Virus record (IMG/VR): IMGVR_UViG_2606217106_000001
Location: 1 to 5,982 of that record
Direction: 5' to 3' (one strand)
DNA from: a virus
Lineage: Duplodnaviria; Heunggongvirae; Uroviricota; Caudoviricetes
DNA: 5,982 nucleotides
Shown here one piece after another: positions 1 to 5,982 of the stretch. Each line of letters starts with the position of its first letter. Position 1 is the stretch's first letter. Under the pieces are notes generated by a model. The model was not told where the DNA came from and did no database searches. It was given only the letters and a program-made list of their open reading frames with translations. The translations under genes were made by a program, and so were the position numbers.

Positions 1-631
1 GAGATTGGGTTGGGAGAGTAGTCATGGTGACAGCCCCTATGTTGAATTCAATGAACTCACCACCAAGGCTTTCCACGACCATATAGGTGGTGAGACGTAC
101 AGGGGTGGAAATACCGGTCAACATAGAACCCGGCCCAACCGAAGTTGGCCCTGCACGCCCCACCATAATTTGGGCATAACGATGCTCATGACACGAAAAA
201 ACCGCATGAGCGCGGTTGTGCTCTATATTGAATTTCGGGTTTCCACGCCCGGCACCCGCTTTATAAGGTGCCTGAGCAGTGTAACGTCCCGGAATTGCAG
301 AATCAATATGCTGGTGGTCCTTCACACTCAACAAAATCACGCCTGAATTTCCACAAAGGACTAAAGCACTCATGCGGGTAGTCTTTGCGAAGATAGATAA
401 CGCGCTGTGTTTCTGGCTCCCAACGAATAACATGAACATAAAGTCCTCTTCCGTCACGAAACCAGCGGTTAAGTTCCTGCACAACTCGCCCCCCACAGTC
501 AGGTAAAGTTCTCTGTGGTTACTTACAGCCAGGTGATTTGGTAATCTGCATTCATGCCGTAACAACAGGTGTTCAGCGACGCTGACCACCAGCTGTTGCG
601 ACAAACGGTTATTTGCCGTTAAACTATTCAT
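1..631 (-). CDS. Hypothetical protein, N-terminal ~210 codons; gene continues beyond the window start. Position (after cro and the 183-aa gene) suggests a replication/early-right module, but function is unassigned
   Basis: Hand translation of the minus strand (plus-strand triplets 629-631, 626-628 ... 2-4) is stop-free to position 1. ATG at 631-629 overlaps the TGA of the upstream gene (ATGA at 628-631), with an in-frame stop just upstream at 635-637 and a GGAG about 10 nt upstream. It is missing from the ORF track because no stop lies in the window; the listed + ORF 5..346 is its same-register antisense shadow. No family recognised. Confidence 0.7.
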   Translation of the reverse strand, partial: MNSLTANNRLSQQLVVSVAEHLLLRHECRLPNHLAVSNHRELYLTVGGELCRNLTAGFVTEEDFMFMLFVGSQKHSALSIFAKTTRMSALVLCGNSGVILLSVKDHQHIDSAIPGRYTAQAPYKAGAGRGNPKFNIEHNRAHAVFSCHEHRYAQIMVGRAGPTSVGPGSMLTGISTPVRLTTYMVVESLGGEFIEFNIGAVTMTTLPTQS

Positions 632-1179
632 GCGTTAGTTTCTCCACAGACACAAAACGCCACGACGCCCGGAGCTGCACACTCGCGGGCGTCACTCTTT
701 TCTGGAGCGCAAAAGATTTTGTAGACCAGTGCTGCATGCTCCTGGAGCTTCGAAATTGACAGATACAACTCATCATTAATTGCTGTCTGCTCGTGTGGCT
801 CCACTACCCCATCTTCGATTGCCGAACGAATCTGCTTTGAGTAACTCCCGATCTGTTCGATGACTTCCAGCAGACGCTGGTTAATATCGGCGTTGTCCAC
901 ATCCTCGACGTCAGGAAGAGACACAAAGACGCCATTTGCAGACTGCGCCACAGCGTCAGCAATGAAGTGAGTTCCACCAGCACGTTGTAAAATCATTGCC
1001 CATCCCAGCGGGAAAATCTGATCGCCATCTGCACGAAGGCGGTTGAATAATGCGTTCTCTGTTACATCCAGCCACTCAGCAGCTTCAGCGTAACCCCCCG
1101 GCAACGCCGCGATAGTTTTTCTGACAGCTTTCACGTACCACTCAGGCTGTTTTTCCACTTTCCAGTGATGATTACCCAC
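628..1179 (-). CDS. 183-aa early protein in the cII position, immediately downstream of cro; possibly a CII-like/YdaT-like regulator, function not established
   Basis: GTG start at 1179-1177 preceded by AGGAGG with a 6-nt spacer (reverse complement of 1180-1195). The start overlaps the end of the cro-like gene by 8 nt and the stop overlaps the next start, so the three minus-strand genes are translationally coupled. The functional label is from position only. Confidence 0.7.
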   Translation of the reverse strand: MGNHHWKVEKQPEWYVKAVRKTIAALPGGYAEAAEWLDVTENALFNRLRADGDQIFPLGWAMILQRAGGTHFIADAVAQSANGVFVSLPDVEDVDNADINQRLLEVIEQIGSYSKQIRSAIEDGVVEPHEQTAINDELYLSISKLQEHAALVYKIFCAPEKSDARECAAPGVVAFCVCGETNA

Positions 1180-1432
1180 GGCTTACCTCCTGTTCCTGTG
1201 GTTTAAACCCATTCTGGTTTTGGCTAGATTGAAAACGTGCCGGATAAAGAATCTGCATTTCGCTGATTTCACCCTTAAAAAAATTGGCCAGACGTTCTGC
1301 AAGATCGATAGATGGAATTTGTTCCAGTCTTTCAATACGACTCAGCGTCGCTGGATTGACCTGAACGCCCGCAGCAACATGCTGCAAAGTAAATCCGTGC
1401 GCCTTACGCACATTCCGTAATGGTGATTGCAT
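1172..1432 (-). CDS. Cro-like HTH (XRE-family) transcriptional regulator, 86 aa
   Basis: ATG at 1432-1430 with GGAGG 4 nt upstream (reverse complement of 1433-1441). Protein has a classic XRE helix-turn-helix (FTLQHVAAGVQVNPATLSRIERLEQ). It is divergent from the cI-like gene across a 97-bp operator region. Confidence 0.85.
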   Translation of the reverse strand: MQSPLRNVRKAHGFTLQHVAAGVQVNPATLSRIERLEQIPSIDLAERLANFFKGEISEMQILYPARFQSSQNQNGFKPQEQEVSRG

Positions 1433-1529
1433 ATAACCTCCACATATTGCGTGATGAGCATATTATTTCACGCAAATATTTTGCGCAAGTTGATTTGCTT
1501 AACGCGCAATAAAGAAATGTAATAAACGC
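1433..1529. promoter_or_regulatory. OR-like immunity intergenic region with three dyad-symmetric operator candidates spaced 24 bp centre to centre, plus candidate divergent promoters pR (towards cro) and pRM (towards cI)
   Basis: Dyads at 1447-1461 (TTGC-N7-GCAT), 1471-1485 (CGCAA-N5-TTGCG) and 1495-1509 (TTGC-N7-GCAA). Candidate pR on the minus strand: -35 TTGCGC (reverse complement of 1483-1488), 17-nt spacer, -10 TAATAT (reverse complement of 1460-1465). Candidate pRM on the plus strand: -10 TAATAA at 1520-1525, which puts the transcript start at or near the cI ATG, and there is no SD before 1530. Confidence 0.6.
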
Positions 1530-2222
1530 ATGAACATAGGAAACCGAGTCAGACAACTTCGCCAGGCGAAGAACATGAAAATCGCCGATCTCGCTGAAGC
1601 AATAGGAGTGGATGCGGCGAATATCTCACGCCTGGAAACAGGTAAGCAGAAACAATTCACTGAACAAGCCCTGAGTAATATTGCCAGGAGCTTAGGTGTT
1701 GATATTGCTGATCTCTTTACCTCAGACGTCAAAAGTAATACTGTATGTAAAAACAGTATTAGTGAGGATGTTGCGCAGGTGAAGGATGTATTCCGTATTG
1801 AAATGCTGGATGTCAGTGCCAGTGCGGGAAATGGCCTTATCCAGGGCGGTGATGTCATTGATGTGATTCATGCCATTGAATACAGAACTGATAATGCTGT
1901 ATCGATGTTTGGCGGACGGCCAGCCAATCACATTAAAGTTATCAACGTTCGTGGGGACAGTATGTGTCCAACCATTGAGCCAGGAGATCTCATCTTCGTT
2001 GATATCAGTATCAATCAGTTTGATGGGGATGGTATATATGTATTTGGTTTTGATGATAAAATTTACGTCAAACGACTGCAAATGATACCTGATAAACTGC
2101 TGGTAATTTCTGATAATCAGATTTACCGCGAATGGGGAATTACCAGCGAAAACGAACATCGGTTTATGGTCTTTGGAAAGGTCTTAATCAGTCAGTCACA
2201 AACCCTTAAGCGACACAATTAA
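1530..2222 (+). CDS. cI-like prophage repressor, 230 aa: N-terminal XRE HTH plus C-terminal S24 (LexA-like) autopeptidase domain
   Basis: HTH at roughly residues 17-40 (KIADLAEAIGVDAANISRLETGKQ). Candidate Ala99-Gly100 cleavage site in the linker (SASAG-NG). GDSM with Ser144 and a KRL lysine (Lys181); the Ser-to-Lys spacing of 37 residues equals that of LexA. ATG at 1530 has no SD. Confidence 0.93.
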   Translation: MNIGNRVRQLRQAKNMKIADLAEAIGVDAANISRLETGKQKQFTEQALSNIARSLGVDIADLFTSDVKSNTVCKNSISEDVAQVKDVFRIEMLDVSASAGNGLIQGGDVIDVIHAIEYRTDNAVSMFGGRPANHIKVINVRGDSMCPTIEPGDLIFVDISINQFDGDGIYVFGFDDKIYVKRLQMIPDKLLVISDNQIYREWGITSENEHRFMVFGKVLISQSQTLKRHN

Positions 2223-2242
2223 CCCCTACCTCAACATCAATT

Positions 2243-2267
2243 AGCCACCAGAAGGTGGCTTTTCATT
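2243..2267 (+). terminator. Rho-independent terminator candidate downstream of the cI-like gene
   Basis: AGCCACC (2243-2249), 4-nt loop AGAA, GGTGGCT (2254-2260), followed by TTTTCATT; 21 bp after the cI stop. Confidence 0.6.
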
Positions 2268-2276
2268 ACCCACCAA

Positions 2277-2330
2277 ATTGCATATCTCGCAATAAAAACA
2301 CTTGCATAATGCGCAACTTCATTTTATCTT
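2277..2330 (+). promoter_or_regulatory. OL/pL-like region: two operator dyads matching the OR consensus, overlapping a candidate rightward promoter
   Basis: TTGC-N7-GCAA dyads at 2278-2292 and 2302-2316, centres 24 bp apart, with the shared core TTGCnTAnnnCGCAA. Candidate promoter: -35 TTGCAT at 2302-2307, 17-nt spacer, weak -10 TATCTT at 2325-2330. The promoter assignment is tentative. Confidence 0.45.
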
Positions 2331-2760
2331 TCTTTCCAGACATACAAACAAGGTACTAACAAAATTTGGTTGTAACACGGCGTATGGCACATGCGTCGTT
2401 AGCGGTCTGGTGACGTTAAAGGGGACAATCCACTCCTTGCTCGGGCAAACAAACCAGGTAGCCGGAATGTGCAAGTCAATGATGATGCTGATAAGACGCC
2501 TAACCAGCGTGGCGATTCGGTTTGACGCCTGGGAAGAGACCAGGGTGCAACGATGAGGGCATTTATGGAACCGCGACAAAGTGTGGTGCCGTAACTGGCT
2601 AAGTGCTCTCAGCGTTGTGGTGAATGCGCAGGCTGATGCGCGAAAGACATTGCAGCTATTGCGGAAAAGAGCTGTTCGGCGGGGCAATTAAACGCCCGTG
2701 AGAGTCTGAAATAACCGCAAGCCGGAGATCAGCACCGGTCACCACAACAGCCACTGCTTT

Positions 2761-2807
2761 AGCGGTACCAGTTTGTACACTTGCTTCCGGCTGGTACCGC
2801 TCTTTTT
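2761..2807 (+). terminator. Strong hairpin followed by a U-tract; candidate intrinsic terminator or attenuator upstream of the accessory operon
   Basis: Perfect 11-bp inverted repeat AGCGGTACCAG (2761-2771) and CTGGTACCGCT (2791-2801) around a 19-nt loop, then CTTTTTA at 2802-2808. The minus strand has no U-tract. Confidence 0.4.
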
Positions 2808-2896
2808 ACAAAACAGAGAAGAGCATCACCGGCCGACGGGCTCATAACCCAATCCATCCTGGCGGCTGCCACCGCAGGTGTTCTTCTCTGTTTTGT
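2808..2896. repeat. Perfect 15-bp inverted repeat enclosing 59 bp of GC-rich sequence, just upstream of the yfdP-like ribosome-binding site
   Basis: ACAAAACAGAGAAGA at 2808-2822 is the exact reverse complement of TCTTCTCTGTTTTGT at 2882-2896. The enclosed segment has further local dyads (for example CCTGGCGG...CCGCAGG). Confidence 0.6.
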
Positions 2897-2944
2897 GGAG
2901 AAACCAACCGACCTTGCAGGGTCGATATGATGAGGAGCAGCAAA

Positions 2945-3307
2945 ATGGCTAGCGAACGCAGTACTGATGTGCAGGCATTTATCGGGGAGCTGGACGGCGG
3001 CGTATTTGAAACCAAAATCGGCGCTGTTCTCAGTGAAGTCGCTTCCGGTGTGATGAATACGAAAACCAAAGGTAAGGTCTCGCTCAACCTGGAAATCGAA
3101 CCATTTGATGAGAACCGTGTGAAAATCAAACACAAACTCTCATATGTTCGCCCGACTAACCGCGGGAAAATTTCCGAAGAAGACACCACCGAAACGCCGA
3201 TGTATGTCAATCGCGGTGGTCGCCTGACTATTCTGCAGGAAGACCAGGGACAATTACTGACTCTTGCCGGTGAACCTGACGGAAAACTCCGCGCAGCAGG
3301 TCGTTAA
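2945..3307 (+). CDS. yfdP: YfdP-like prophage protein of unknown function, 120 aa from this start
   Basis: ATG at 2945 preceded by GAGGAG (2932-2937) with a 7-nt spacer. The ORF track begins at ATG 2927 (126 aa), which remains an alternative. Symbol assigned by synteny with yfdQ/yfdR and recalled length; not verified. Confidence 0.7.
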   Translation: MASERSTDVQAFIGELDGGVFETKIGAVLSEVASGVMNTKTKGKVSLNLEIEPFDENRVKIKHKLSYVRPTNRGKISEEDTTETPMYVNRGGRLTILQEDQGQLLTLAGEPDGKLRAAGR

Positions 3308-3372
3308 TATCGTTTTTAATTAACTGATTATTTATCTCATCACTGAATATCTTTATATAGTGAGGACTTATT

Positions 3373-4197
3373 ATGTCTCAGAACTTAGACGCAACCGCAA
3401 TTAATCAAATCCATGCCCTTATTTCTGCTCAGGGTGTTAATGAAATTATCAGTAAGATTGGTGCCGATGCTGTGGCATTGCCTGAGAATTTCCGCATTCA
3501 TGATCTGGAAAAATTTAATTTAAATCGCTTCCGTTTCCGTGGTGCGCTTTCCACTGCCAGCATCGATGACTTTACCCGTTATTCTAAAGATCTTGCAGAT
3601 GAAGGCACCCGCTGCTTTATCGATGCTGATAATATGCGTGCCGTCAGTGTGCTTAACCTGGGTACTATTGATGAACCAGGTCACGCAGATAACACCGCCA
3701 CACTCAAACTGAAAAAGACAGCACCGTTCTCTGCTCTGTTGTCTGTTAACGGCGAGCGTAACTCCCAGAAGTCACTGGCAGAATGGATTGAAGACTGGGC
3801 CGACTACCTTGTGGGCTTTGATGCTAATGGTGACGCTATTCAGGCAACAAAAGCGGCTGCGGCAGTCCGTAAAATCACGATTGAAGCAAACCAGACCGCT
3901 GATTTTGAAGATAATGACTTCAGCGGCAAACGCTCCCTGATGGAATCTGTCGAAGCGAAGACCAAAGACATTATGCCAGTGACATTTGAATTTAAATGCG
4001 TTCCGTTTGAAGGCCTGAAAGAACGTCCGTTTAAATTACGCCTCAGCATTATCACTGGCGATCGTCCTGTACTGGTTCTGCGCATTATTCAGCTGGAGGC
4101 GGTGCAGGAAGAAATGGCTAACGAATTTCGTGATCTGCTTGTTGAGAAATTTAAGGACAGCAAAGTAGAAACCTTTATTGGTACTTTCACCGCCTGA
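3373..4197 (+). CDS. yfdQ: YfdQ-like prophage protein (DUF2303 family as I recall it), 274 aa, function unknown
   Basis: ATG at 3373 with GTGAGGA (3360-3366) at good spacing; a long uninterrupted ORF of protein-like composition. Length and position match CPS-53 YfdQ from memory. Confidence 0.88.
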
Positions 4198-4209
4198 TTT
4201 CATTACTGC

Positions 4210-4231
4210 AAATGCCCCTGCGGGGGCATTT
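4210..4231 (+). other. GC-rich hairpin in the yfdQ-yfdR spacer; weak terminator, attenuator or RNA-stability element
   Basis: AAATGCCCC (4210-4218), loop TGCG, GGGGCATTT (4223-4231): a 9-bp stem starting 13 nt after the yfdQ stop. The 3' T-run is short and mostly inside the stem. Confidence 0.35.
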
Positions 4232-4324
4232 ATGGAAACATAATTTACTCAATAATCGCCGGATGGTGATGGCTTCCTTTTACCAGAATTCAGCGCGGTG
4301 CAGCGCATATACGTGGAGAACAAA

Positions 4325-4861
4325 ATGTCATTTATTAAAACTTTTTCCGGGAAGCATTTTTATTATGACAGGATAAATAAAGACGACATCGTGATTAACG
4401 ATATCGCGGTTTCCCTTTCAAATATCTGTCGCTTTGCAGGACATCTTTCACACTTCTACAGCGTCGCCCAACATGCGGTGCTTTGCAGCCAGCTGGTACC
4501 GCAGGAATTTGCTTTTGAAGCGTTAATGCATGATGCAACAGAAGCGTATTGCCAGGATATTCCCGCTCCACTGAAACGCCTTCTTCCTGACTATAAACGG
4601 ATGGAAGAAAAAATAGACGCCGTAATCCGTGAGAAATACGGGTTACCCCCGGTTATGAGCACGCCCGTGAAATATGCCGATCTCATCATGCTGGCAACCG
4701 AACGCCGCGATCTCGGGCTTGATGATAGCTCTTTCTGGCCTGTACTGGAAGGTATCCCGGCAACAGAGATGTTCAAAGTGATTCCACTGTCGCCAGGCCA
4801 TGCCTACGGGATGTTTATGGAACGTTTTAACGAGTTATCGGAGTTACGCAAATGCGCATGA
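4325..4861 (+). CDS. yfdR: YfdR-like HD-domain phosphohydrolase (YfbR-type 5'-deoxynucleotidase family), 178 aa
   Basis: ATG at 4325 with GGAGAA (4314-4319) upstream; the ORF-track start at 4298 is a GTG 9 codons further up with no SD. HD-domain residues are visible: H40, H43, H50 and the H69-D70 pair (FAGHLSH ... LMHDATEAY). Confidence 0.88.
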   Translation: MSFIKTFSGKHFYYDRINKDDIVINDIAVSLSNICRFAGHLSHFYSVAQHAVLCSQLVPQEFAFEALMHDATEAYCQDIPAPLKRLLPDYKRMEEKIDAVIREKYGLPPVMSTPVKYADLIMLATERRDLGLDDSSFWPVLEGIPATEMFKVIPLSPGHAYGMFMERFNELSELRKCA

Positions 4862-5202
4862 ATGTTTTCGAAATGGAAGGGTTTCTTCGCGGGAAATGTG
4901 TACCACGAGATCTGAAAGTGAATGAAACAAATGCTGAGTATCTGGTGCGTAAATTCGATGAAGTACGTGCTGAGGCTCGCAACGAGGGTATTAACTATAC
5001 CGCAAGCCGTCTTGCTGCGGCTTTCAATCACGGATTTATCAATAAGTCTTTACGTGAAGTTTTCGACGTTACACGCATGATTCTGTCAGCGAAAGAAGAG
5101 TTGGCTAATGAACCACACCCGATTGATGGCCTGTCCGGTGAATATGCGGAGAAATCCCTAGAAGAATGGGCGGAACAGATTCGCAAAGGAGGCAACCAGT
5201 GA
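4852..5202 (+). CDS. YfdS-like small prophage protein, 116 aa; C-terminus ends in the RKGGNQ junction motif
   Basis: ATG at 4852 with GGAG (4840-4843) 8 nt upstream; it overlaps the yfdR stop (4859-4861) by 10 nt. An in-frame ATG at 4858 gives an ATGA overlap instead. The stop overlaps the next gene's GTG start. Confidence 0.75.
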   Translation: MRMNVFEMEGFLRGKCVPRDLKVNETNAEYLVRKFDEVRAEARNEGINYTASRLAAAFNHGFINKSLREVFDVTRMILSAKEELANEPHPIDGLSGEYAEKSLEEWAEQIRKGGNQ

Positions 5203-5204
5203 GC
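5180..5204 (+). repeat. Copy 1 of a 25-bp perfect direct repeat spanning a gene junction (codons for RKGGNQ, SD, stop and GTG start)
   Basis: TTCGCAAAGGAGGCAACCAGTGAGC is identical at 5180-5204 and 5857-5881. About 40 bp of downstream flank is similar but not identical (roughly 70% by eye). Confidence 0.9.
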
Positions 5205-5879
5205 AAGATTGACTATCAAGAACTGCGCGAGGCGGCGGAACAGGCAACGCAAGATGAATGGGTAGCATATATTTTGCCGGGTCATAACGGCATTTATCCT
5301 GCGCGCACGTCTGAGGGTAGGCATTGCGGATACTTTATTGACTGGCCTGGCGTCTGTCAGGGGCGGGAGAGCATCAGCATCAGAACCTACGCAGTGAATT
5401 GCAATGACGCATGGCTAAACACCGAAGGTGATGACATCTCCGGCTCATACGTTAAGTACAAAGACCATCAGGAAGTGGTTGCCGCTCTTGAGGCCAAGTG
5501 CGCGGCGCTGGCTGCTGAGAATGCGGGAATAAAGTCTGCAATTCCAAAATCACGGGATATTGAGGATGACAATGACAATATGGATGACGTATCTCTCGCG
5601 GAAGACTTCGGGTTCAATCATGCAATAGAACGGATGAGGAGACAGATACCTGAAACGCCAACCACTGATGCTTTCCTGGCTGAAGTCCGGGCGCAGGGGG
5701 TGGATGCTGCTATAGAAGCTGCAAAAAATCTGGTGGCCCAAGAATATGAGTGTAAGGATTTCAAAGCGGCGCAGAGTGATTGCTGTATGTACCCTGGTTC
5801 AGACCTGGTAGGGAAGGTTGAAATGACTGAGTGGTTAGTTGACTTTGCTGCCCAGCTTCGCAAAGGAGGCAACCAGTGA
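5199..5879 (+). CDS. Acidic hypothetical protein, 226 aa, tentatively Ead/Ea22-like (typical lambdoid early-left accessory gene)
   Basis: GTG at 5199 preceded by AAGGAGG (5186-5192) with a 6-nt spacer, overlapping the upstream stop (GTGA). The ORF-track start at ATG 5166 has no SD and would overlap the upstream gene by 37 nt. N-terminus SKIDYQELREAAEQ; C-terminus LRKGGNQ. Confidence 0.75.
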   Translation: MSKIDYQELREAAEQATQDEWVAYILPGHNGIYPARTSEGRHCGYFIDWPGVCQGRESISIRTYAVNCNDAWLNTEGDDISGSYVKYKDHQEVVAALEAKCAALAAENAGIKSAIPKSRDIEDDNDNMDDVSLAEDFGFNHAIERMRRQIPETPTTDAFLAEVRAQGVDAAIEAAKNLVAQEYECKDFKAAQSDCCMYPGSDLVGKVEMTEWLVDFAAQLRKGGNQ

Positions 5880-5881
5880 GC
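5857..5881 (+). repeat. Copy 2 of the 25-bp perfect direct repeat at the next gene junction
   Basis: Identical to 5180-5204, 677 bp downstream, in the same relation to stop and start codons. Confidence 0.9.
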
Positions 5882-5982
5882 GAAATTAATTACCAGGCAC
5901 TGCGTGAGGTGGCGGAACGTGCAATTCCAGCAATGGAACGCCTGTTAATGTTGCCAGTTGATGATGATTTGTTAAGTGAACA
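5876..5982 (+). CDS. Paralogue of the preceding gene, first 35 codons only; runs off the window end
   Basis: GTG at 5876 behind the same AAGGAGG and GTGA stop-start overlap. The N-terminus VSEINYQALREVAER parallels VSKIDYQELREAAEQ of the upstream gene. Open to the window end, so not in the ORF track. Confidence 0.55.
   Translation, partial: MSEINYQALREVAERAIPAMERLLMLPVDDDLLSE

Follow-up and report, generated by a model that had tools for sequence, protein, structure and literature searches.

CII of phage 186 recognises an inverted repeat with two helical turns between its half-sites, whose centres fall at -38 and -58 of the promoter pE, and makes contacts to alpha and sigma (PMC6593788). In lambda, a terminated RNA of 77 nt, OOP, is made from pO just downstream of cII and is antisense to the cII 3' end (PMC7067206), while in the Rac and CP-933P prophages YdaT, encoded in the cII position after the Cro-like YdaS, acts as the activator of a cryptic, pRE-like promoter located between their two genes (PMC8630535). 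A further element, ECS003, was detected by deep sequencing in prophage e14 of Escherichia coli K-12 as an RNA of 116 nt with most reads in a 78-nt stretch, appearing on Northern blots as a band of ~70 nt and a faint band of ~120 nt; it is constitutive, is antisense to ymfL as well as to the ymfM ribosome-binding site, and was proposed, as an isolated cis-antisense candidate, to mask the latter (Shinhara et al. 2011, PMC3175480). Here we analyse a stretch of 5,982 nt of Caudoviricetes DNA (IMG/VR record IMGVR_UViG_2606217106_000001, positions 1 to 5,982; hereafter the window) in which three chained minus-strand genes encode a Cro-like protein, a 183-amino acid (aa) protein and a third product. 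The 183-aa protein is YmfL, a member of the phage 186 CII family, and we estimate at roughly 65% the probability that the region works as a 186-type CII switch, with YmfL acting at two inverted repeats on two predicted promoters, P1 and P2, and with an OOP-like antisense RNA.

The 183-aa gene, ymfL, lies at 628-1179 on the minus strand with a GTG start at 1179-1177, behind the cro-like gene (1172-1432, minus strand; 86 aa, HTH_3, by Pfam and gene calls). The 5' part of the next gene (2-631, minus strand) runs off the left end of the window; in an identical prophage it is a 383-aa 'Rha family' open reading frame (ORF), the first ~100 codons of which are a module common to ymfM-like genes. A Pfam search of the 183-aa protein returned a single family above threshold, PF06892 (Phage_CP76, 'phage regulatory protein CII'), with a score of 51.4 bits where the cutoff is 26 (E = 1.4e-13, residues 17-150). 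On the same model 186 CII scores 163.6 bits, and PF06892 is present in 120 of 120 homologues among the matches listed. The NCBIfam YmfL equivalog (NF041471) is matched at 168.9 bits against a cutoff of 90, PHROG 101 ('CII-like transcriptional activator') is assigned to the protein, and the identical protein is named YmfL in RefSeq; homologues in phage records are called cII (SfII, Stx2a phages) or hypothetical.

Structure prediction points in the same direction. Two AlphaFold2 models were made, one from YmfL sequences only (predicted local distance difference test, pLDDT, 63) and one with 186-type sequences added (pLDDT 69.5, with 78-93 in the N-terminal domain). Both consist of five short and two long helices followed by a tail of low confidence at residues 159-183 (pLDDT < 50) that, as modelled, is likely disordered, and in both the fold is an N-terminal helix-turn-helix (HTH) domain plus a helical hairpin, like the solved 186 CII structure; the modelled hairpin is proposed to be the oligomerisation hairpin. 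In Foldseek searches with either model, the 186 CII crystals 6VLI, 6VPE and 6VMH fill the top 6-8 of 350,542 PDB chains at probability 1.0 (0.99-1.00 for the first model; best E = 8e-4). hhalign and a joint alignment place the HTH in register (VTENALFNRLR in YmfL, NVQTLRNKLN in 186), and the joint alignment is collinear over the full length at 14-19% identity. The initial annotation had correctly placed this protein in the cII position and had suggested an establishment regulator different from that of lambda, with which PF06892, NCBIfam, PHROG and Foldseek all agree. The lambda CII family, considered as a candidate, was ruled out by PF06892 as the sole Pfam family, by the length of 183 aa and by an inverted repeat with a 14-nt spacer.

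Related loci were sampled from phage records and from one genome per species, yielding ~75 YmfL loci of which 56 were analysable. YmfL loci whose product is 59-94% identical to the protein of the window were also found in assemblies labelled Chryseobacterium, Nocardia, Vagococcus, Martelella and Corallococcus (L019, L031, L039, L050, L075), two of the five being ~415-bp low-coverage contigs; these assemblies are likely to reflect enterobacterial contamination.

Alignment of ymfL starts across these loci reveals an imperfect inverted repeat, CCACAG-N14-CCGTGG in that alignment, which is kept even beside unrelated cro genes. In the window this is site 1, the predicted YmfL operator (CCACGG-N14-CTGTGG, 1176-1201), the distal half-site of which holds the GTG start. 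A second and perfect repeat, site 2 (CCACAG-N14-CTGTGG, 493-518), lies 110 nt beyond the ymfL stop. The pattern CCACRG-N14-CYGTGG thus occurs twice in the window against 0.04 occurrences expected by chance, and a scan of 50 kb, comprising the identical prophage plus adjoining host DNA, found no further copy, for example near int, xis or Q. Both sites are present, 640-800 bp apart, in 56 of the ~75 loci, with almost no other matches per 3.5-kb stretch. An exact 6-nt-seed repeat search of 1080-1320 did not report site 1, because that site has one mismatch. Read toward cI, on the plus strand, the common layout is a distal CCAC[GA][GA], 14 variable bases and a nearly invariant proximal CTGTGG.

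Site 2 falls within a reading frame (AAC CAC AGx ... xCT GTG GGx), and its half-sites occupy different codon phases. The wobble bases of its half-sites show almost no variation while the 14-nt spacer is free to vary, and in phage AH07 site 2 lies in unannotated intergenic DNA; the phase difference, the nearly invariant wobble positions and the AH07 copy together argue for constraint at the DNA level. Phage mEp390 provides a natural variant. Its PF06892 protein is 28% identical to YmfL (55.8 bits) and has a different recognition helix (VTQFNNNLYE versus TENALFNRLR), and the phage carries two sites of the form CTACC[AC]-N14-TGGTAG, one just after cro and one downstream of cII, each with the same arrangement of -35 hexamer, 17 bases and -10 hexamer on the antisense strand. 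The repeats of the cI-cro intergenic region (1445-1511), TTGCGTGA-N13-TCACGCAA and related repeats, which are presumably the CI/Cro operators, are unlike sites 1 and 2 in sequence, and the cro genes differ among loci that share the CTGTGG sites. Because these operators are unrelated and the cro genes vary, a CII-type protein rather than CI or Cro is indicated as the binder. From sequence we infer that YmfL binds CCACRG-N14-CTGTGG, with half-sites two helical turns apart. Within the operator region, TTGCGTGA-N13-TCACGCAA at 1447-1475 is contained in a 32-nt imperfect inverted repeat whose arms are about two helical turns apart.

Each site abuts a promoter-like sequence on the plus strand. P1 (1202-1230) consists of a -35 hexamer TTTAAA (1202-1207), 17 nt and a -10 hexamer TAGATT (1225-1230), with a predicted start at ~1237, and is directed antisense through cro toward cI. 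P2 (519-547) consists of a -35-like TTACTT (519-524), a 17-nt spacer ending in TGG (539-541) and a -10 hexamer TAATCT (542-547), with a predicted start at ~554. The general pattern is a TTAnnn -35-like hexamer abutting the proximal half-site, followed by 17 bases and TAnnnT. At site 1, TAnnnT stands at a gap of 23 nt after the proximal half-site in 48 of the 56 loci and of 22 nt in seven more; at site 2 the 23-nt gap holds in 56/56. In subsets below 75% identity, TAnnnT is retained in 38/39 (site 1) and 20/20 (site 2) loci. Control positions gave 0-1 occurrences at other offsets and none in the opposite (sense) direction. Taking the -10 hexamer as -12 to -7, the half-site centres fall at -38.5 and -58.5. 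The 186 record likewise has its CII site overlapping the cII start codon, and a generic scan finds that site with a -10 hexamer at a 21-nt gap after the 7-mer half-site; an earlier assignment of 186 pE, with TACAAT and sites straddling -35, was dropped in favour of the published centres at -38/-58. Motif placement of this kind suggests that YmfL activates both P1 and P2, and site 1 together with P1 looks like a pRE analogue.

A separate element occupies the ymfL 3' end. A constitutive-type promoter, a putative analogue of lambda pO, lies at 596-625 on the plus strand (-35 TTGCGA at 596-601, 18 nt, -10 TAAACT at 620-625), and is followed by an OOP-like antisense RNA, the homologue of ECS003, at 629-703 (plus strand), as placed by alignment of ECS003 to window 629-738. 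The 5' end of ECS003 maps to position 629, at the ATGA junction between ymfL and the next gene, and its 78-nt core ends at an intrinsic terminator (664-703, plus strand) with the stem GACGCCCG-GAG / CUC-g-CGGGCGUC (664-693) followed by ACUCUUUUCU. The terminator sits inside the ymfL codons for PEKSDARECAAPG. The ECS003 sequence is exact in two e14-bearing loci. The ATG and Shine-Dalgarno (SD) sequence of the following gene, as well as the final ~75 nt of ymfL, are complementary to the RNA, which in position, size and orientation is, by analogy, the counterpart of lambda OOP. Its promoter is found in 54/54 distinct loci, with TTGCG[GA], a spacer of 18 nt (17 in three) and a TAAACT-type -10 hexamer whose variants TACAAT, TAGAAT and TAAAAT retain T1, A2 and T6, and the terminator hairpin is found in 54/55.

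Covariation within the terminator was assessed on an alignment of 47 distinct sequences with 500 shuffles and slid controls. Pairing is maintained in 97.1% of cells, compared with 35-53% in the slid controls, and compensatory double changes occur in 6 of 11 pairs (26 cells). None of the 500 shuffles matched the observed values on four of five measures, and 6/500 did so for pairs changed on both sides. Read on the antisense strand the hairpin contains 35 G.U pairs compared with 7 on the sense strand, and a T-tract follows the stem on the antisense strand only; this bias and the T-tract indicate that the terminator serves a plus-strand RNA. In mEp390 the homologue of this hairpin, again with a T-tract, is found between cII and the gene after it, where the DNA is non-coding, so that the RNA element, rather than the peptide PEKSDARECAAPG, appears to be primary. 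P2 lies ~75 nt upstream of the pO-like promoter and shares the terminator at 664-703 with it, and would by prediction yield a YmfL-dependent long form of ~150 nt from ~554; the predicted 554-720 transcript folds with z = -5.4 relative to shuffled controls. P2 had been considered the lone source of the antisense RNA, a view revised once the 5' end of ECS003 had been placed and a conserved promoter recognised downstream of P2. The ST64B non-coding RNA STnc1310 was rejected as a candidate for this RNA, its coordinates placing it on the far side of cI, and Rfam holds no family for the antisense RNA.

The C-terminal tail of YmfL (codons ~158-183, window 628-705) is encoded by the DNA of the antisense-RNA terminator and the next gene's ribosome-binding region. 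Rapid proteolysis by FtsH/RseP through the C-terminal region is a trait of the 186 CII family, and the single hint of it in YmfL is the pLDDT below 50 at residues 159-183. Since the homologous DNA of mEp390 is non-coding, the tail may have arisen as an extension by overprinting; alternatively, it may double as a tag for degradation, as the C-terminus of 186 CII does.

In the circuit that we propose, the three chained genes, cro-like, ymfL and an antirepressor-type gene, open the rightward early operon in a prophage of lambdoid type, and the rightward promoter would express cro, ymfL and the downstream genes upon infection or induction. Accumulating YmfL would bind site 1 and recruit RNA polymerase to an otherwise weak P1, the transcript of which would run antisense through cro into cI and establish repression; the expected target is the cI-type repressor gene at 1530-2222 (plus strand; HTH and S24 peptidase). 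YmfL at site 2 would fire P2 and raise the level of the antisense RNA, which would occlude the next gene's ribosome-binding site and start and would pair with the ymfL 3' end, thereby damping both the lytic programme and YmfL itself. Both gene junctions coincide with conserved control elements on the antisense strand, which are probably YmfL sites, the target promoters of YmfL and an OOP-like small RNA. A fuller version, to which we give somewhat less than an even chance, is that YmfL runs a compact and so far undescribed antisense programme, with a pRE-like promoter on its own start codon and P2 boosting a small RNA (sRNA) with a terminator overprinted on the C-terminal codons of ymfL, which silences a downstream antirepressor or division-inhibitor gene at the ATGA junction and feeds back on ymfL, and that a large class of lambdoid prophages uses a 186-type CII, rather than one of lambda type, in this manner. 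Sequence resembling the region occurs in 2883 of 5426 complete E. coli genomes.

Several observations weigh against this interpretation. BLASTP of YmfL against 186 CII was not significant (E = 12), hhalign of shallow profiles was weak (E = 0.13), and phmmer and profile hmmsearch of PDB sequences with YmfL gave no relevant match; family membership is founded on the Pfam model together with the fold matches, which were obtained from models of medium confidence (pLDDT 63 and 69.5). The compared loci are related, so that the locus counts are not independent events, and part of the conservation of site 2 and P2 could be at the protein level because they lie in coding sequence. The P1 and P2 hexamers are weak: a generic sigma-70/terminator scan was silent on both and also failed to report the pO-like promoter and the bulged terminator. 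Silence at P1 and P2 is consistent with activator-dependence of these promoters but is not proof of it. ECS003 is constitutive in K-12, and the antisense RNA is thus made without YmfL induction. Finally, the faint ~120-nt ECS003 band is unlike the ~160 nt predicted for the e14 P2 product.

The initial annotation had read the chained genes in another way, as overlaps that tie together the translation of Cro, of the 183-aa protein and of the product that follows, so fixing their ratios. The overlaps themselves are real, being evident in the sequence and in identical RefSeq/PGAP gene calls for the 100% identical prophage of E. coli TOE17: the cro stop and ymfL start share 8 nt (1172-1179, minus strand, GTGGGTAA; the cro-like ORF ends CGT GGG TAA), and ATGA at 628-631 (minus strand) joins the ymfL stop (TGA, 630-628) to the next gene's start (ATG, 631-629). 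The chain extends through the TOE17 operon, where eight successive junctions overlap by 8, 4, 4, 4, 4, 1, 4 and 4 nt. Stop/start overlaps of 4-8 nt can permit reinitiation, which is physically possible at both junctions here. That coupling is their key function is nevertheless unlikely. ymfL has a strong SD sequence of its own, AGGAGG at 1186-1191 (minus strand), at an ideal spacing of 6 nt before the GTG and within the site 1 spacer, and the next gene has its own GGAG 10 nt 5' of its ATG. A cro-type ORF overlaps ymfL in only 7 of the 56 related loci (by 8 nt in six and 14 nt in one), ending 22-63 nt upstream of ymfL in the other 49, and ATGA is present at the ymfL stop in 27/56 and absent from 29/56, yet the protein and the DNA motifs are kept; the ymfL start codon is GTG in 55/56. 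The ST64B cro gene, homologous to that of the window, terminates just before the site 1 equivalent without overlap. P1 and site 1 are intergenic in most relatives, and the 8-nt overlap exists because in this lineage the cro frame extends ~20 codons across P1 and site 1, which its final ~20 codons traverse. The overlaps are ordinary phage gene packing. Of the functional reading originally attached to them, the different establishment regulator survives, as the YmfL family, while coupled translation at fixed stoichiometry is unsupported as a design principle and the suggested YdaT-type toxin is wrong.

Two observations concern this junction in other sequences. In many loci without the overlap (for example L006 at 1457-1460, L008 and L009) the cro TAA abuts the proximal half-site (..TAACCACAG) and is, on the opposite strand, the TTA of the predicted P1 -35 hexamer. 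Databases also contain Cro-YmfL fusion proteins of about the summed length (P0001, 264 aa; P0006, 262 aa, with PF14549 and PF06892), which reflect either a frameshift at the overlap or faulty gene calling.

A second alternative accepts that the repeats bind a protein but not that they activate promoters: YmfL or another conserved factor might, for example, bridge the two sites, which are ~680 bp from each other, or form a roadblock in the path of rightward transcription, and TAnnnT would be incidental. 186 CII is reported (Shearwin and Egan 2000) to form higher oligomers at high concentration, which would favour this alternative, as would the roughly constant separation of the sites (640-800 bp) and the position of site 2 in coding DNA. 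Such an explanation leaves unaccounted for a -10-like hexamer on one strand, at a fixed distance, in 55/56 and 56/56 loci, including those with unrelated cro 3' ends and those in intergenic DNA, in a geometry equal to that of an experimentally defined activated promoter, 186 pE. DNA-bound 186 CII is, moreover, reported not to block an elongating polymerase (PMC6593788), which argues against a roadblock. We regard this alternative, too, as having little probability, slightly less than that of coupling.

The motifs might also be conserved as a by-product, of the SD sequence and start codon at site 1 and of the protein sequence at site 2, with no regulator bound. The distal half of site 1 does hold the GTG and its spacer the SD sequence, and site 2 encodes conserved His and Val-Gly residues. 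However, the proximal half of site 1, upstream of the SD sequence and beside unrelated cro genes, is nearly invariant; the halves of site 2 lie in different phases with near-fixed wobbles around a free spacer, and its AH07 copy is intergenic; and mEp390 has altered both sites in parallel to a new sequence. Conservation by these means alone is very improbable. Least credible of all, to the point of being negligible, is that the 183-aa protein is a YdaT-like toxin or a toxin-antitoxin partner of the Cro-like protein, an idea favoured only by its position behind a cro-like gene and a size exceeding that of lambda CII, since the YdaT Pfam families (YdaT_toxin / DUF1019) are not matched at E<=0.01, the first 50 Foldseek PDB matches contain no YdaT structure and sequence searches of the PDB found none, YdaT of CP-933P is itself reported as a CII analogue and not a toxin (PMC8630535), and induced over-expression of e14 ymfL gave normal cell length without filamentation (bioRxiv 10.1101/2020.11.19.390815).

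Other elements of the window were noted. Inside the Rha-family ORF, on the minus strand, Rfam identifies a C4 antisense RNA (83-170; 82 bits, gathering threshold 45) and the Hfq-binding RNA isrK (195-271; 62 bits, gathering threshold 50), together with a sub-threshold c4-a1b1 target element (232-284). A Pfam Phage_ASH match (residues 117-209 of the ORF) falls on the same DNA, and in ST64B lysogens the homologue, STMMW_20221, is expressed at ~900-2700 transcripts per million in nearly all of 17 conditions (84 in one), which greatly exceeds the level of cI. An RNA immunity module like immI of phage P1, embedded in, or mis-annotated as, coding sequence of the Rha-family ORF, is suggested by these features. 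Just past the cI stop stands a stem-loop, AGCCACC-AGAA-GGTGGCT (2243-2260), that has T-runs on either strand and so probably terminates transcription in both directions; the SfII annotation places a terminator at the equivalent position. Several genes of the leftward operon (3373-5879) overlap by 4-10 nt, and for a YfdR-like 5'-deoxynucleotidase at 4298-4861 (compare L001, 10325-10861) the longest ORF begins at GTG 4298, the RefSeq start lying 27 nt later (4325).

YmfL has so far been an uncharacterised gene product, both in e14 of K-12 and in many prophages of the Stx, Shigella Sf and Salmonella ST64B types. It now gains a concrete candidate operator, two predicted target promoters and a link to an already observed sRNA. 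A search of the open-access literature found nothing on YmfL operators or on CP76 in lambdoid phages, and neither the operator/promoter architecture nor the sRNA link was found there; both are, within that literature, new here. The region is probably a good example of a 186-type CII module inside a lambdoid switch. If so, the two-turn-spaced recognition of 186 CII would be a general, portable solution, reused at -38/-58 in lambdoid switches, and CTGTGG, TGGTAG and CAAACAT would be natural specificity variants for structural and synthetic-biology work on 186 CII.

Comparison with described systems places the locus between 186 and lambda. YdaT is of a separate family, without sequence or fold match to YmfL. 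With 186 the locus shares PF06892, the fold by best PDB match and a gene placed behind a cro/apl-type gene of the lytic operon; inverted half-sites 20 bp apart near -38/-58 of a promoter directed toward cI, which is predicted here; a half-site that holds the activator's own start codon (ATG in 186 cII, GTG in ymfL); and a dispensable-looking C-terminal tail. It differs from 186 in that the proteins are only ~15% identical, the half-site is CTGTGG rather than CAAACAT, the cI/cro arrangement is lambdoid and divergent rather than one of P2-like face-to-face promoters, and two target promoters are predicted here compared with a single one in 186. Lambda CII and pRE resemble the locus, as predicted here, in having an establishment promoter on the cro/cII junction, running antisense through cro to cI, and lambda pI/paQ in providing an additional CII-dependent antisense promoter further downstream. 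Lambda CII is, however, an unrelated protein of 97 aa that recognises direct repeats, TTGC-N6-TTGC, straddling -35, and, in contrast to pI/paQ, the scan of 50 kb made here gave no site in the vicinity of int or Q.

For the antisense RNA the closest relatives are ECS003 and lambda OOP. ECS003 is a direct homologue, all 116 nt of which align to window 629-738; the paper describing it is without the conservation across YmfL prophages, the terminator covariation, the analogy to OOP and the upstream YmfL-type site. Lambda OOP is likewise a terminated RNA with its promoter just downstream of the cII gene and is of similar length, 77 nt compared with ~75-78 nt here; RNAs of the OOP type act by way of RNase III, which cleaves the duplex and so reduces CII expression. 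In contrast to OOP, the RNA of this locus starts exactly at the ATGA and covers the SD sequence and ATG of the next gene, its terminator lies within conserved ymfL C-terminal codons, and a predicted CII-dependent promoter is situated upstream.

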